From Minisyncoccota bacterium (GTDB lineage Bacteria > Patescibacteriota > Minisyncoccia > UBA6257 > GWB1-50-10), in contig JAGVBB010000003.1 of assembly GCA_020059915.1 (NCBI GenBank), positions 160,610 to 224,609 of the forward strand: 64,000 nt of DNA, read 5' to 3'. Below are positions 2,952-63,844 of the stretch, in pieces. Under the pieces are notes generated by a model. That model did no database searches and was not told where the DNA came from. It saw only the letters and a program-made list of their open reading frames with translations. The first letter of the stretch is position 1; each line of letters begins with the position of its first letter. A program made the translations under genes and the position numbers.

Positions 2952-3035
2952 ACTATAAAGACGGTAAAGACCTCAAATTATTGCAACAAAAAGCCACCAT
3001 ATTGTTATAGGTGGTTTTTCCAACACCAACATAAA

Positions 3036-3356
3036 TCACAGCTGATGCTTTTTAATATGTTTCCAGGATTTTTTTGCGTGAGCAATAATTTCCTTTTTTT
3101 CCTTTTCGGAAAGACGCTTCTTTTGTGCATATGTTTCCATTGCAGTTTTTATAAATGAATTGTATTCTTCCTCTCCAACCTGCTTCATTTTTTTAAATTG
3201 TGGGGCAATATATGCATGAAATTCTGCAGACTTCTTTTTTACATCACCCAAAAACTTTTTTGTTGATTCAGAAACAAGTATAATTCCAGCCGCAATACTC
3301 AGTGCAGCGCCAATAAGTCGTCCTTCTATAATTTTTGCTCTATTATTTTTTTTCAT
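3036..3356 (-). CDS. Hypothetical small membrane-anchored Lys-rich protein
   Basis: ORF with one N-terminal TM helix; no recognisable family. Confidence 0.35.
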   Translation of the reverse strand: MKKNNRAKIIEGRLIGAALSIAAGIILVSESTKKFLGDVKKKSAEFHAYIAPQFKKMKQVGEEEYNSFIKTAMETYAQKKRLSEKEKKEIIAHAKKSWKHIKKHQL

Positions 3357-4475: not shown

Positions 4476-4633
4476 GTGCGGGGAGCAGTAGGAATCGCCT
4501 CTCGCTCTACTGAGCTCGAGACCTACGGCTTCTCTTCGAAGCCTGCGGCACTAAAGTATTGCTATTTGTAGTTAATTACTTCGTAATTAAACAAACAGGG
4601 AACCCGCGGTTCGATTCCTGCCACTTACAAAAT
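4476..4633 (-). repeat. tRNA-Trp 3'-end pseudo-copy (4476-4497) plus about 135-bp structured insert; member of the gene-3'-end-associated element family
   Basis: tgcggggagcagtaggaatcg matches the 3' acceptor/T-arm of the intact tRNA-Trp (tgcgggggcagtaggaatcg) about 200 bp away. The insert carries an AACCCgCGGTTcg hairpin module shared with the rpsI-associated element (AACCCaCGGTTt) and a 38-nt block shared with the tRNA-Tyr locus. Confidence 0.45.
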
Positions 4634-4676
4634 AAAACGAGCACATCATAAAAGACGTGTTCGTTTTATTTTTTTT
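4634..4676 (-). terminator. Bidirectional terminator hairpin directly 3' of tRNA-Trp
   Basis: aacgagcac...gtgttcgtt stem flanked by an A-run and a T-run. Confidence 0.5.
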
Positions 4677-4677
4677 G

Positions 4678-4748
4678 CGGGGGCAGTAGGAATCGAACCC
4701 ACATTAGCGGTTTTGGAGACCGCTGTCCTACCGTTGAACGATACCCCC
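4678..4748 (-). tRNA. trnW: tRNA-Trp (anticodon CCA)
   Basis: Hand-folded. Acceptor GGGGGTA/TGCCCCC, D-arm GTTC..GGAC, anticodon stem GCGGT/ACCGC with loop CTCCAAA, T-arm GTGGG-TTCGATT-CCTAC. Closely resembles E. coli tRNA-Trp. Confidence 0.85.
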
Positions 4749-8130: not shown

Positions 8131-8150
8131 TCCTGCCTACCGGCAGGCAG
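8131..8150. repeat. REP-like palindromic element CCTGCCTACCGGCAGGCAGG (copy 1 of 3, inverted relative to the other two)
   Basis: Exact reverse complement of the CCTGCCTGCCGGTAGGCAGG core found at 19842 and 31278. Confidence 0.6.
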
Positions 8151-8162
8151 GCGCCGTCTCAA

Positions 8163-8413
8163 CGCAGGGGAGGATTCTCCTCTCACTCTGCTGAGTTCGA
8201 GACCTACGGCTTCAAAATCAAAGGATGCGGGTCGCGATGTTTTTTGGGGAGGATTTTCCTCACCCGTCACTTTCGCTCCTCCTTCGGAATCCAGGGTTCC
8301 TCGCTTTCGTTCGTTTCACTCACTCTTCGCATTCGCGCGCTCGGATACCCTTCGAATCCTCCTAGACATGAAACTAAAAAAGAAAGGACAAGTCCTTTCT
8401 TTTTTAGTTTGTG
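8163..8413 (-). repeat. tRNA-Tyr 3'-end pseudo-copy (8163-8177) plus about 235-bp insert; member of the gene-3'-end-associated element family
   Basis: cgcaggggaggattc is identical to the tRNA-Tyr 3' acceptor/T-arm 15-mer. The adjacent block ctctcactctgctgagttcgagacctacggcttc is paralogous to the tRNA-Trp locus block. A diverged match (cgctttcgttcgtttcactcactc) to the rplK/rpsI module is present, about 11/19 ungapped. Confidence 0.45.
8376..8406 (-). terminator. Terminator hairpin (aaaggac/gtccttt) directly 3' of tRNA-Tyr
   Basis: 7-bp stem flanked by A- and T-runs. Confidence 0.5.
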
Positions 8414-8496
8414 TGCGCAGGGGAGGATTCGAACCTCCGTAGCCGATAGGCGTCAGATTTACAGTCTGATACAATTGACCGCTCTGTCACCTGCGC
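8414..8496 (-). tRNA. trnY: tRNA-Tyr (anticodon GUA) with long variable arm
   Basis: Hand-folded. Acceptor GCGCAGG/CCTGCGC, anticodon stem-loop TCAGA-CTGTAAA-TCTGA, long variable arm, T-arm GGAGG-TTCGAAT-CCTCC. Confidence 0.85.
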
Positions 8497-10651: not shown

Positions 10652-11346
10652 CTCCACTCTTCTATTAGCTTATGATTTCCAGATTGAAGCACCTCAGGTA
10701 CTTTCCAAATTTTTTTTCGTTTTCCTTTTTCTTGAATCACTACTTCCGCAGGTTTTGTATATACCGGATACGAACCCTTTATTTCTTCTAACGATTCCGT
10801 TTTTCCTAACACTCCAGGAATCTGACGCGATACTGCATCCATCACCACAAGTGCAGGTAATTCACCACCAGAAAGCACAAAATCTCCTATTGAGACCTCC
10901 TCATCTGCAATATATTCCGCAACACGTTCGTCTACTCCTTCATAGCGACCACAAATAAAAATGAGATGATTATATTTTGAAAGTCGCTTTGCATCCTCAT
11001 TGGTAAACACTTTTCCTCGTGTTGAAAACAAAATGGTTCGGCTCTGCTCACCACGGGCTGTTCGTGTTTTTCCCTTTTTTATTTTTGATAATACTTTTTC
11101 TACCGCTTTATAAATCGGTTCAACCTTGAGCACCATCCCCGGTCCTCCCCCGTATGGTGATTCATCAGTTATTTTATGTTTTCCCAATCCAAACTGGCGA
11201 AGTGCTACTGGATTTATTTTTATTAATTTCTTTTCTTGTGCGCGTCCAATAATTGAAGCATTACAGTATGACTCCAAAGATTCTGGAAATAACGAGATAA
11301 TGTGAAATGTTTTCATTGTCTTGCTTATTGAAACTATACCAAACAA
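10630..11346 (-). CDS. trmD: tRNA (guanine37-N1)-methyltransferase
   Basis: SPOUT/TrmD motifs (ISIGDFVLSGGELPALVVMDAVSRQIPGVLG). Confidence 0.85.
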   Translation of the reverse strand: MFGIVSISKTMKTFHIISLFPESLESYCNASIIGRAQEKKLIKINPVALRQFGLGKHKITDESPYGGGPGMVLKVEPIYKAVEKVLSKIKKGKTRTARGEQSRTILFSTRGKVFTNEDAKRLSKYNHLIFICGRYEGVDERVAEYIADEEVSIGDFVLSGGELPALVVMDAVSRQIPGVLGKTESLEEIKGSYPVYTKPAEVVIQEKGKRKKIWKVPEVLQSGNHKLIEEWRKNKQQS

Positions 11347-11382
11347 AAACCCCGCCAGTCCATGGACCGGCGGGATTCTTTT

Positions 11383-19642: not shown

Positions 19643-19841
19643 ATGTTATTAAAGGATTGAAGTATTGAAAATTTAAAAATTTTTAGACTGACTTTATTCA
19701 CACTCTGTTGAAAACCCCATAGGTGCGACCTTTTTGCTATCTCATTGGGGTCATTCCCACATCCTCCTCGTCATTCCCGCGAATGCGGGAATCCATTGTT
19801 TCGAATTTTGTCCTTTACTCCTCAATCTTTCAATCCTGCCT

Positions 19842-19862
19842 GCCGGTAGGCAGGCTTCAATC
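19842..19862. repeat. REP-like palindromic element CCTGCCTGCCGGTAGGCAGG (copy 2 of 3) with flanking TTCAAT repeats
   Basis: Identical core to 31278-31316 and inverted copy at 8131-8150; flanked by the ttcaatttttcaatt motif also present at 31250-31275. Confidence 0.6.
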
Positions 19863-40323: not shown

Positions 40324-40572
40324 CTACCCATCATTTTTTATTCGTTGTTTTATATATCGTTTACCCCACGCAGACTTCAGATAAAGTTCACGAGCATGAA
40401 TATCCTTACTATTTCTACTTGCTTCATAATAAACAAGTTCTAATGGTAAACGATTTTTTGTACTTTGAACTCTACCACTACAATGTTCATCAAAACGCTT
40501 CTTAAGATCACTAGTCTTACCTACATAAAAATTCTGATCTTTTGCGCTTCTAAGAACATACACATAGTACAT
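40324..40572 (-). CDS. Stand-alone GIY-YIG nuclease domain protein (82 aa)
   Basis: YYVYVLRS...NFYVGKTSDLKKRFDEH...R...LVYYE GIY-YIG motif set. Confidence 0.7.
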   Translation of the reverse strand: MYYVYVLRSAKDQNFYVGKTSDLKKRFDEHCSGRVQSTKNRLPLELVYYEASRNSKDIHARELYLKSAWGKRYIKQRIKNDG

Positions 40573-40775
40573 ATCTCACGGGGTTAATTTTATCGTACTT
40601 CGTACTCAAAATTAAAAAACGGCTACGACCTTTATGCCGTAGACGTATACTCACACATGAGTATTGGTCTTTTCCTCGGTAGGACTTATGATGTATCTCT
40701 CAGTTTTGTCTTGAGATACTCAACCTACGGTCTACGGATATATGTACATATTACCCAATTTCCCCAAAAAGTCAA

Positions 40776-63180: not shown

Positions 63181-63191
63181 AGAAAAACACA

Positions 63192-63406
63192 ACAGTGGAG
63201 AAAGCAAAAATCCCGCCTTTGGCGGGATTTACTTTAACGCTTTCTCCGAATGCTGCATCGCTTCGCTCTTTAGAAACCCACGGTTTCTAACGCTCGTTTT
63301 ACTCGCTGTTTTCCTCCACGGGGAGAGACTCATTTCCTGTCTCTCCCCGAACCCCTCTCTCACAACAGTGGAGAAAGCAAAAATCCCGCCAAAGGCGGGA
63401 TTTACT
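63192..63406 (-). repeat. rpsI-associated structured element: insert (63251-63367) between the rpsI terminator region and a pseudo-copy of the rpsI 3' end plus terminator (63192-63250)
   Basis: About 58-bp direct repeat carrying ggagaaagcgttaa, terminator aaatcccgcc-NNNN-ggcgggattt, and gctttctccactgttgt. Insert modules CGCTCGTTTTACTCGCT, AAACCCACGGTTT and TTTCCTCCAC-GGGGAGAGAC..GTCTCTCCCC match the rplK-associated element. Confidence 0.55.
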
Positions 63407-63844
63407 TTAACGCTTTCTCCACTGTTGTGGTCTGCGGGCTTTACGAAGTCCAGGATGTTTTCGTTCCACCATTCGTGGATCACGCTTTAAGAAACCAAGT
63501 ACTTTCAAATTTGCTCTCCAAATTGGATTGAGCATAATGAGCGTTCGGGAAATTCCCAAACGAATTGCTTCTGCTTGTGCGGTTGTTCCCCCACCAACAA
63601 CATTCACTGAAACCTTATAGGAATCAAGGGATAATGTAGTAAATGGATCAATTACTATTTTTCTCAATCTTTCCGTACCAAAATATTTAGCAAAACTTTT
63701 TTCGTTAACAAGCACCTCTGATTTATCAAATTTCCCAGTAAATAATCGAACTCGAGCAACTGCAGTTTTTCTTCGTCCAACAGCCTCAAAATATTTAGTT
63801 CCTTTTATTGACTTTGTAGTCTCTTTTACTTTTGTAGTTGTCAT
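63407..63844 (-). CDS. rpsI: 30S ribosomal protein S9
   Basis: S9 core and C-terminal KARRPQQWRKR; rplM-rpsI synteny. Confidence 0.9.
   Translation of the reverse strand: MTTTKVKETTKSIKGTKYFEAVGRRKTAVARVRLFTGKFDKSEVLVNEKSFAKYFGTERLRKIVIDPFTTLSLDSYKVSVNVVGGGTTAQAEAIRLGISRTLIMLNPIWRANLKVLGFLKRDPRMVERKHPGLRKARRPQQWRKR

Follow-up and report, generated by a model that had tools for sequence, protein, structure and literature searches.

A structured element mirrored by copies of its host gene's 3' end lies behind rpsI and other, mostly housekeeping, genes of Patescibacteria

Directly behind rpsI, the gene for ribosomal protein S9, a Minisyncoccota bacterium carries a short non-coding insert bounded by copies of the gene's own end. 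We analysed it in a 64,000-nucleotide stretch of contig JAGVBB010000003.1 (assembly GCA_020059915.1, positions 160,610 to 224,609), which we call the window. The insert belongs to what appears to be a widespread structured element, undescribed and with an unusual architecture in which the flanks mirror the target; a literature search turned up no account of it. Each copy shares the strand of its host gene, a tRNA gene or another, mostly housekeeping, gene, and follows directly behind that gene's terminator hairpin. With a little better than even confidence, we regard it as a selectively maintained, apparently undescribed 3'-trailer RNA element of Patescibacteria (the candidate phyla radiation, CPR), with its function and spread inferred only. 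A preliminary description of the locus had proposed an element family and a displaced 3' end of rpsI, and both ideas are right; its explanation by an attachment (att) site of an integrative and conjugative element (ICE) is not supported.

At rpsI the parts are laid out as listed here. Contigs and loci other than the window carry L numbers, and R1 is a covariance model introduced below.

63407..63844, minus strand: rpsI (ribosomal protein S9, 145 aa), an open reading frame (ORF) with Pfam Ribosomal_S9, E=5.5e-37
63407-63429, minus strand: X1, the target segment, the last 23 nt of rpsI (CACAACAGTGGAGAAAGCGTTAA), part of the rpsI ORF
63381..63403, minus strand: T1, the proximal terminator hairpin, AAATCCCGCC-TTT-GGCGGGATTT then TTGCTTTCTC; an inverted repeat, terminator-like only on the minus strand
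63361..63378, minus strand: X' (gene strand GCTTTCTCCACTGTTGTG), antisense of the final rpsI codons, 18/18 complementary to 63412-63429
63248..63360, minus strand: core of the rpsI element, 113 nt; R1 match at 63263-63362 (minus strand), 35.5 bits, E=6e-8; 92% identity to the L002 ortholog. Its components are a purine-rich joint J1, hairpin P2 (63319-63349), joint GTGGAGGAA, a 17-nt inserted module (63291-63307), hairpin P3 (63270-63290) and a GAGCGAAGCGAT tail
63234..63256, minus strand: X2, the displaced sense copy of the rpsI 3' end (GCAGCATTC-GGAGAAAGCGTTAA), last 14 nt exact, first 9 diverged
63208..63230, minus strand: distal terminator hairpin, the T1 stem with its loop flipped (AAA on the gene strand), terminator-like on the minus strand
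63188..63205, minus strand: distal second copy of X', completing the 60-nt direct repeat (from the direct and inverted repeat search)

The longest short-range direct repeat of the 64-kb window is the 60-nt repeat at this locus (63188-63247 and 63361-63420), in which 57 of 60 positions are identical. The duplication of the rpsI end and terminator, first placed at 63192-63250 and 63368-63425 and about 175 apart, is thus confirmed as a 60-nt unit with a measured start-to-start spacing of 173. On the gene strand each unit reads GGAGAAAGCGTTAA (WRKR and the stop), a hairpin AAATCCCGCC-NNN-GGCGGGATTT and then GCTTTCTCCACTGTTGTG. The hairpin has a 10-bp GC-rich stem and an intrinsic-terminator score on the minus strand only, and both copies face the rpsI direction. 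In both units, as first noticed, GCTTTCTCCACTGTTGTG is complementary to the end of rpsI, pairing 18/18 with its last 18 coding bases; in the minimum free energy (MFE) fold of the locus this X1:X' pairing is present and extends the T1 hairpin into the gene end. The longest exact run common to the two repeats is 30 nt, and the sole mismatches are three loop bases, TTT versus AAA. Since the loops are the only difference, the two hairpins (63208-63230 and 63381-63403) are exact reverse complements, and on the sequence the three mismatches are an inversion of the hairpin loop, not three separate substitutions. This loop flip suggests template switching or recombination between the arms of the stem.

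The distal WRKR* is indeed a displaced copy of the rpsI 3' end. It had been thought to have lost its preceding coding bases; these are present and diverged, the nine bases GCAGCATTC ahead of WRKR* standing where rpsI has CAACAGT, and the copy is about 23 nt long, not 14. Between the repeats lie 113 nt (63248-63360), not the 117 first given, and both hairpins reported there hold (63270-63290, and 63319-63329 with 63339-63349). No ORF fits the 113-173 nt of the rpsI insert, whose neighbours are rpsI and a gene for a beta-propeller protein.

Comparison of related rpsI loci indicates that the insert is old in this lineage, not a recent insertion, and that it was probably lost in L001. A search for loci with and without the insert, as proposed at the outset, found L002 filled and L001 empty by exactly 173 nt. 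L002 comes from a different Paceibacterota species, whose RpsI is 90% identical. The core and its junctions recur there, down to the TTC variant of X2; T1 and T2 of L002 show no relationship, whether with one another or with the window terminators, and the distal X' is missing. Window and L002 cores are 92.0% identical (104/113) with no indel, compared with 83.0% for the rpsI coding sequence and 61% for the 3' end of the neighbouring gene, and the terminators are unalignable. That the core is better conserved than the rpsI coding sequence speaks for purifying selection acting on it here. L001, a 1.9-kb public contig, encodes an identical RpsI protein at 98.7-99.1% nucleotide identity to the window. 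It has one 60-nt unit with the distal version of the loop (AAA) and no core, and its solo form consists of the long hairpin followed by TTTTTCTTT. Assembly collapse is an unlikely cause of the gap; the most likely one is loss of the insert by recombination between the 60-nt repeats.

In the most parsimonious history, the element would be older than the split between the window and L002 species. Gene conversion or unequal exchange in the window lineage would then have written the proximal X-T-X' over the distal terminator region, giving the 60-nt repeat, and L001 would have lost its core through recombination inside the first 27 nt of that repeat. Nor is the insert a universally conserved, ordinary 3' untranslated region: L001 is without it, and in L003 the core has decayed. 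The L003 locus (2980-3350) consists of rpsI, a terminator, an antisense copy and the decayed 5' half of a core, followed by about 330 nt of unrelated non-coding sequence in which no Rfam family is found.

The second copy of the family in the window lies behind rplK, the gene for ribosomal protein L11.

27113..27538, minus strand: rplK (ribosomal protein L11; Pfam Ribosomal_L11_N and Ribosomal_L11), its last 30 nt being the target of the second family copy
26955..27112, minus strand: second family copy, behind rplK; R1 match at 27000-27072 (minus strand), 77.3 bits, E=1.3e-19
27092-27115, 27072-27092, about 26985-27072 and 26955-26984: within that copy, respectively T1 (overlapping the rplK stop), X', the canonical core and X2
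26917-26954: terminator T2 after the rplK copy, unlike its T1

Here X2 reads RKVGIEIID*, compared with RNMGIEIID* in rplK itself, and the 34-nt direct repeat that results (26951-26984 and 27109-27142) is the second-longest short-range repeat of the window. In the MFE fold of the rplK copy, pairing between X' and X2 closes the core. When the rpsI and rplK inserts are aligned locally, the comparison with shuffled controls suggested earlier gives a score of 26 against 14.9 +/- 2.2, which 2 of 1000 dinucleotide shuffles reach. A module CGCTCG..ACTCGCT occurs within the window only at 26986 and 63291. The modules are in rearranged order, as the preliminary description had it: on the gene strand this one (AGCGAGT..CGAGCG) takes its usual place 3' of P3 at rplK, and at rpsI a copy lies between the central joint and P3, where other family members have unrelated extra hairpins. 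A search for an empty rplK site recovered only the identical strain. Terminators of the form CCCGCCAGT..ACTGGCGGG occur at unrelated loci (window 26917-26954 and 11345-11377; L032 713-733). We considered T2 as a shared part of the element and rejected it: the pattern is found only in L032 and the window, including 11345-11377, and probably represents a kind of terminator common in the lineage.

These two inserts supplied a 19-base degenerate pattern (AAACCGNTGGGTTTN{3,6}GAGCGA) for a contig search, so that loci were ascertained via the motif and six P3 pairs and the GAGCGA tail are fixed by the pattern itself. It matched 68 metagenomic contigs, about 50 of which share a strongly conserved motif that reads, on the gene strand, GGGAAAGGGGTC - P2 - GTGGCGGAAG - P3 - AAGGAGCGA(..)AGCGAC; the search of viral contigs returned no copy. 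CPR-lineage labels are found only on the named genome contigs L002-L009, two of them generic. From 27 metagenomic copies, the window copies not included, we built the covariance model R1. Over the entire window with filters off, R1 gives exactly two significant matches, rplK with 77.3 bits and rpsI with 35.5 bits (E=1e-19 and 6e-8, R1 E-values being rough), the next best having E=0.1. This independent model bears out the proposed kinship of the rpsI and rplK inserts. Altogether R1 finds 58 copies in 56 sources, including the two window sites; some of the other 56 copies are redundant or partial.

The core of the element measures about 75-115 nt, and its two hairpins are well supported by covariation. 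RNAalifold, applied to a MAFFT alignment that was not fitted to the model, predicts P2 and P3, the same two hairpins as R1, with 99.1% of cells paired and compensatory changes in 9 pairs, compared with 3.2 +/- 0.7 for shuffles. In the larger, model-fitted alignment compensatory changes are seen in every one of the 17 pairs, and slid controls lose the signal. Neither the pairing (98-99% of cells) nor the compensatory counts (9-17 pairs) were matched by any of 500 shuffles. Near-invariant purine-rich strands join P2 and P3. P2 can be wholly replaced, as in L055 and at the window rpsI, while the adjoining joints stay invariant, and across copies unrelated hairpins are inserted at three fixed positions of the core. 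On the gene strand wobble pairs are G·U in 10 cases and A·C in 2; short P2 loops are GNRA in 28/47 (GGGA, GGAA, GAGA, GTGA); and each of the 28 copies having an identified upstream gene is co-oriented with it. Wobble, loops and co-orientation together point to an RNA with the same reading direction as the host gene.

Known RNA families do not account for the element. At gathering thresholds Rfam 15 reports only tRNA and the L10 leader in the window and 28 related loci; at E up to 10 its sub-threshold matches to both inserts are hairpin noise only, and no tRNA or tmRNA lies within the inserts. Several other identities were tried and rejected. A small protein, MAE(V/I)(L/I)KP(L/M)GF.., fails on a start codon that varies (GTG/GAG/GCG/GAT) and on 16-20 nt insertions at fixed spots that break the frame. 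A G-quadruplex in GGGAAAGGGGTCGGG..GGGA is not kept in L055 or the rpsI copy. Likeness to hepatitis delta virus-like or hammerhead ribozymes or to group I introns (a P4-like GGGAAAGGGGUC) does not extend to matching helices, and Rfam is silent. A GUC/GAC mini-helix as the closure of the junction shows no covariation by inspection.

The flanks are as distinctive as the core. The usual order is the gene end X1, a long A/T-flanked terminator hairpin T1, the antisense X', the core, the sense X2 and, often, a different terminator T2. Among 49 family copies, X':X1 complementarity scores at least 9 in 38 and X2 = X1 identity at least 11 in 34; shuffle means for the flank scores are 5-6.5. Where the host is a tRNA gene, the sequence that X' complements comprises the T-loop, the T-stem's 3' strand and a portion of the acceptor stem, and X2 duplicates the final ~22 nt of the tRNA. 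Of 57 tRNAs scanned, on CPR contigs chosen because they carry the motif, about half have a downstream direct copy (score 12-22, null maximum 8), and most of these also have an antisense copy. Nine CPR rpsI loci retrieved independently of the motif were examined as well, and X' and/or X2 is found in 5/9.

The same core is found behind at least 18 different genes, each time with repeats derived from that gene. Hosts include 13 tRNA species, rpsI at four loci (window, L002, L020 and L065; Pfam S9), rplK, alaS (L057), a glycosyltransferase gene (L048) and the gene for a giant protein (L025/L075). Most copies duplicate X only, with T1 unlike T2 and no distal X', and the whole X-T-X' unit is duplicated at the window rpsI and L025/L075. 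There are tandem arrays (L052, L068, L048) and solo X-T-X' sites without a core (L001, L006 and the tRNA-Lys locus L072, ortholog of the filled L010 locus). In L055 the flanks derive from tRNAs other than the adjoining one. X' matches X1 better than it matches X2. Together with an X2 that differs mainly at synonymous sites in L065 and L007, this suggests, on sequence grounds, that X1-T1-X' behaves as one unit; the L065 X2 reads PKWAKR* compared with PQWAKR*, with 3/5 changes synonymous and the stop kept. Behind rpsI of L007 (2900-3010) a 58-nt two-hairpin insert is followed by a second WRKR* (TGGCGCAAACGTTAA, the real end being TGGCGCAAGAGATAA); 3/3 changes there are synonymous, and the antisense copy and the family core are missing. 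The idea of a tRNA primer-binding site was rejected: X' is usually without the complement of the extreme tRNA 3' end, and X2 is without CCA.

Some segments of the copies resemble the ends of other genes. The 3' tail of the core (window 63257-63268; consensus GAGCGAAGCGAC) is similar to rpsI 3' ends from other CPR lineages (TGGGCGAAGCGATAA; L059/L065), and the X' of the rplK copy contains TCGAA, left over from an antisense T-loop. Remnants of earlier hosts may build up in the flanks.

If the element is a 3'-trailer RNA, it would be kept by selection as the RNA produced when transcription passes T1. X' would have two mutually exclusive partners: X1, giving a longer terminator stem (the MFE fold at rpsI), or X2, closing the core as a three-way junction (the MFE fold at rplK). 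Such a bistable module may act on read-through transcripts of highly expressed translation genes, in their folding, processing, stability or termination. The mirrored flanks could arise when the element is installed behind a gene, by templated copying of the target 3' end, either through fold-back or template switching at the hairpin or through recombination. For the origin of the flanks there are three candidate routes, each of which accounts for some of the observations: templated fold-back or template switch, duplication of a palindromic target, and a small circle that enters by Campbell-type recombination.

Several points count against this interpretation. In the same 49 copies the X':X2 pairing has a median score of 6 and reaches 8 in only 16, so that a junction closed by P1, and with it the switch, is not a general feature. 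A tRNA that has folded would be hard for X' to invade. No promoter-like site was seen ahead of the rpsI core, which sits between two terminator-like hairpins, and any core RNA would therefore stem from T1 read-through and end at the distal hairpin. L003, whose RpsI is 87% identical, has only a decayed and disrupted 5' half of the core, which is thus dispensable there. Apparent conservation is inflated by the part of P3 and the GAGCGA tail that the search pattern fixes. Hairpins of single-stranded DNA can likewise contain G·T pairs and stable purine loops, and an element acting at the DNA level is compatible with the strand evidence. Finally, the process that writes X' and X2 is one we infer only.

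A bolder reading, possible but in our view doubtful, is that the element represents a new class of self-propagating structured element. Once lodged behind the terminator of a gene, it would write an antisense and then a sense copy of the last ~20 nt of a gene around itself, by copy-back or template switching at hairpins and possibly via an RNA or small circular intermediate, giving a target-matched, guide-like pair of flanks.

The data can also be read at the level of DNA. A non-autonomous mobile element, similar to miniature inverted-repeat transposable elements (MITEs) or repetitive extragenic palindromic (REP) sequences and mobilised in trans, might target terminator palindromes, perhaps as hairpin or cruciform DNA, and duplicate them; its hairpins would be protein recognition sites on single-stranded DNA, not RNA. 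Once a palindrome is duplicated, the insert is automatically bracketed by the gene end in both orientations, one inverted and one direct. This fits copies behind at least 18 different genes, presence/absence polymorphism between strains, the tandem arrays, the solo sites and the two cases (window rpsI and L025/L075) in which X-T-X' is duplicated on both sides of the core, and orientation could track the direction of replication rather than transcription. Most copies, however, duplicate X only, which plain palindrome duplication fails to describe, and the outgroup L002 shows that the full 60-nt duplication of the window is secondary. Copies within a contig are no more alike than copies between contigs (77 and 35 bits in the window, 98 and 41 in L017), so recent bursts are not indicated. 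An orthologous core that outconserves the adjacent coding sequence is unexpected for an inert insert, and no transposase was seen near any copy. We consider this explanation unlikely. Practically no credence is due to the idea that the rpsI terminator underwent a single local tandem duplication or slippage event and that the likeness to the rplK insert is chance: short direct repeats at hairpins can form by slippage, but the core scores significantly as one of a family that has dozens of other copies (R1 matches two sites in the window and 58 overall) and the insert is present in another species (L002).

Two further explanations invoke integration. The repeats could be attL/attR remnants of an integrase-driven element (ICE, integrative and mobilizable element (IME) or cis-mobilisable derivative) that entered the rpsI 3' end with a replacement end and was later mostly deleted. 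Direct repeats containing the gene 3' end (60 nt at rpsI, 34 nt at rplK) are in keeping with this; so is the mostly synonymous difference between X2 and X1, with the stop kept, in some rpsI-linked copies (L065, L007), as expected of a foreign or formerly functional gene end. Integrases classically target the conserved 3' ends of tRNA genes and of rpsI (PMC4701971), and the statement that the rpsI 3' end is a documented ICE target is correct for streptococci (PMC4701971); rpsI is a recurrent host here too, at four loci. Yet no integrase is found in or next to the roughly 50 copies, and more generally no recombinase, transposase or reverse transcriptase lies in or beside copies, the genes downstream of 11 other copies being housekeeping by inspection. 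Copies without a nearby X2 gave no sign of an adjoining integrase or reverse transcriptase either, their downstream ORFs looking housekeeping by inspection. A single core is joined to the repeats of many genes, at odds with one att core per family; integrase recombination leaves the antisense X' unexplained, a constant X' not being an att-site feature; covarying hairpins and conserved joints are not features of att arms; and in L055 neither X' nor X2 matches the adjoining tRNA. This makes an att origin highly improbable. Nearly as improbable is a tiny circular replicon or excised circle, viroid-like or a minicircle, whose unit X-T-X'-core (173 nt here) enters and leaves by Campbell-type recombination through a shared segment. 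It would account for the 1.35 unit lengths at rpsI, for the layout with T1 unlike T2 (homology over X alone) as well as that with the 60-nt repeat (homology over X-T-X'), for tandem multimers, for the precise loss in L001 as excision, and for X1-T1-X' as a coherent palindromic unit with X' closer to X1 than to X2. Counter to this, Rfam scans detected no ribozyme or replication motif, viral contigs are without matches and no circular form was observed; T1 sequences vary by locus, and the acquisition of new X/X' pairs for new targets is left unexplained.

Other features of the window and related contigs lie near the element or resemble it. Behind tRNA-Trp (4677-4748, minus strand) and tRNA-Tyr (8413-8496, minus strand), the stretches 4478-4676 and 8162-8412 have the same layout with different cargo; they share a module, GAAGCCGTAGGTCTCGArCTCAGyAGAGyGAGAGG, which is missing from the other fetched loci, and R1 is silent there. 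A 20-nt palindromic hairpin, CCTGCCTGCCGGTAGGCAGG, occurs at window 8132-8151 and 19835-19854 and in L042 (6 copies), L017 and L072, with 0 chance matches expected in the window; it looks like a separate REP-like repeat family, and a related longer hairpin follows tRNA-Glu near 31270-31315. A small GIY-YIG-type ORF (40333-40572, minus strand) adjoins the L10 leader (40605-40755) and is 42% identical to an ORF by the L007 rpsI insert. Similar ORFs are found in several related contigs, with inconsistent adjacency to the element; a link between element and nuclease, suggested by its position beside two inserts, was rejected after tblastn showed as much. In L013 (11060-11365) and L018 (about 2070-2180), tRNA-Asn genes with an anticodon-loop intron, missed by ARAGORN, have a family element directly behind them. 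Such introns have been described in tRNA genes of Patescibacteria (PMC13011429).

CPR genomes are tiny and leave little room for non-essential DNA, and many standard RNases and regulators are missing from these bacteria. As a functional RNA, the core would be an orphan motif, widespread at the 3' ends of translation genes, and would hint at a new layer of 3'-end processing, termination or quality control in the CPR. If it is mobile, flanks that mirror the target imply an insertion chemistry unlike that of transposases, integrases and introns. Should the element prove self-propagating, its flanks would record successive hosts and its core would be a novel CPR-specific functional RNA, such as a ribozyme, a protein- or ligand-binding module or an antitermination or processing signal. 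On the practical side, displaced gene ends and long palindromes can mislead the annotation of tRNA and ribosomal-protein gene ends and confuse assembly, and presence or absence of the insert can serve as a strain marker.

Parallels to known systems are partial in every case we considered. Integrative elements (ICEs, IMEs, prophages and cis-mobilisable remnants) likewise target the 3' ends of tRNA and ribosomal-protein genes, duplicate the end so that the gene stays intact, and are removed by recombination between the repeats; rpsI is a documented target (PMC4701971). The element described here differs in having no recombinase, a length of about 100-170 nt, one core with the repeats of many genes, an added antisense copy of the gene end and RNA-like covarying hairpins. 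Class C (IIC) group II introns insert just downstream of intrinsic terminators, co-oriented with the gene, and pair with the upstream flank. Position just 3' of a terminator and co-orientation are shared, whereas our element has no reverse transcriptase and its pairing segment spans 15-20 nt instead of a few. Rfam scans with E up to 10 found no intron family, and hence no group II domains (5' GUGYG, domains V/VI), and group II introns are reported absent from Patescibacteria (PMC13011429). For group I introns, the P3-P9 core has no counterpart: there is no Rfam Intron_gpI match, and the core of the element has two hairpins only. Similarity between the group-I-type intron of the L013 tRNA-Asn and the adjoining element was not seen by eye.

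MITEs and repeats of the REP and bacterial interspersed mosaic element (BIME) type are also small, non-coding, multi-copy, hairpin-rich and intergenic, often just after genes. In contrast to the shared termini of MITEs, the inverted flanks X' and X2 are locus-specific copies of the host gene end, and the duplication measures 14-60 nt rather than a fixed 2-10 bp target-site duplication; the short palindrome with a conserved tetranucleotide that marks REP sequences is missing. In E. coli tyrT, 178-bp repeats each end in the last bases of tRNA-Tyr, a case that our literature search did not retrieve. Those units resemble ours in repeating behind a tRNA gene with a copy of its 3' end, but they belong to a single locus in one species and have neither an antisense copy nor a structured core shared with other genes.

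Extra-long-stem intrinsic terminators resist processive antitermination (PMC10325885), and X' similarly lengthens the T1 stem into the gene 3' end; in most copies, however, no U-tract follows X', and the core and X2 are left unexplained. Riboswitch expression platforms offer a closer structural parallel in a conserved junction closed by a helix, one strand of which (here X') has an alternative partner (X1), with covarying stems and invariant joints. Our element differs in lying 3' rather than 5' of the gene and in a closing helix that is weak in most copies, and Rfam is silent. The attP site of CTX phage and the attC sites of integrons imitate a duplex target when folded as single strands, and Xer or IntI recognises their fixed sequences. 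The stem of the X1-T1-X' hairpin likewise reproduces the chromosomal target as a duplex, with the difference that its sequence changes from locus to locus.

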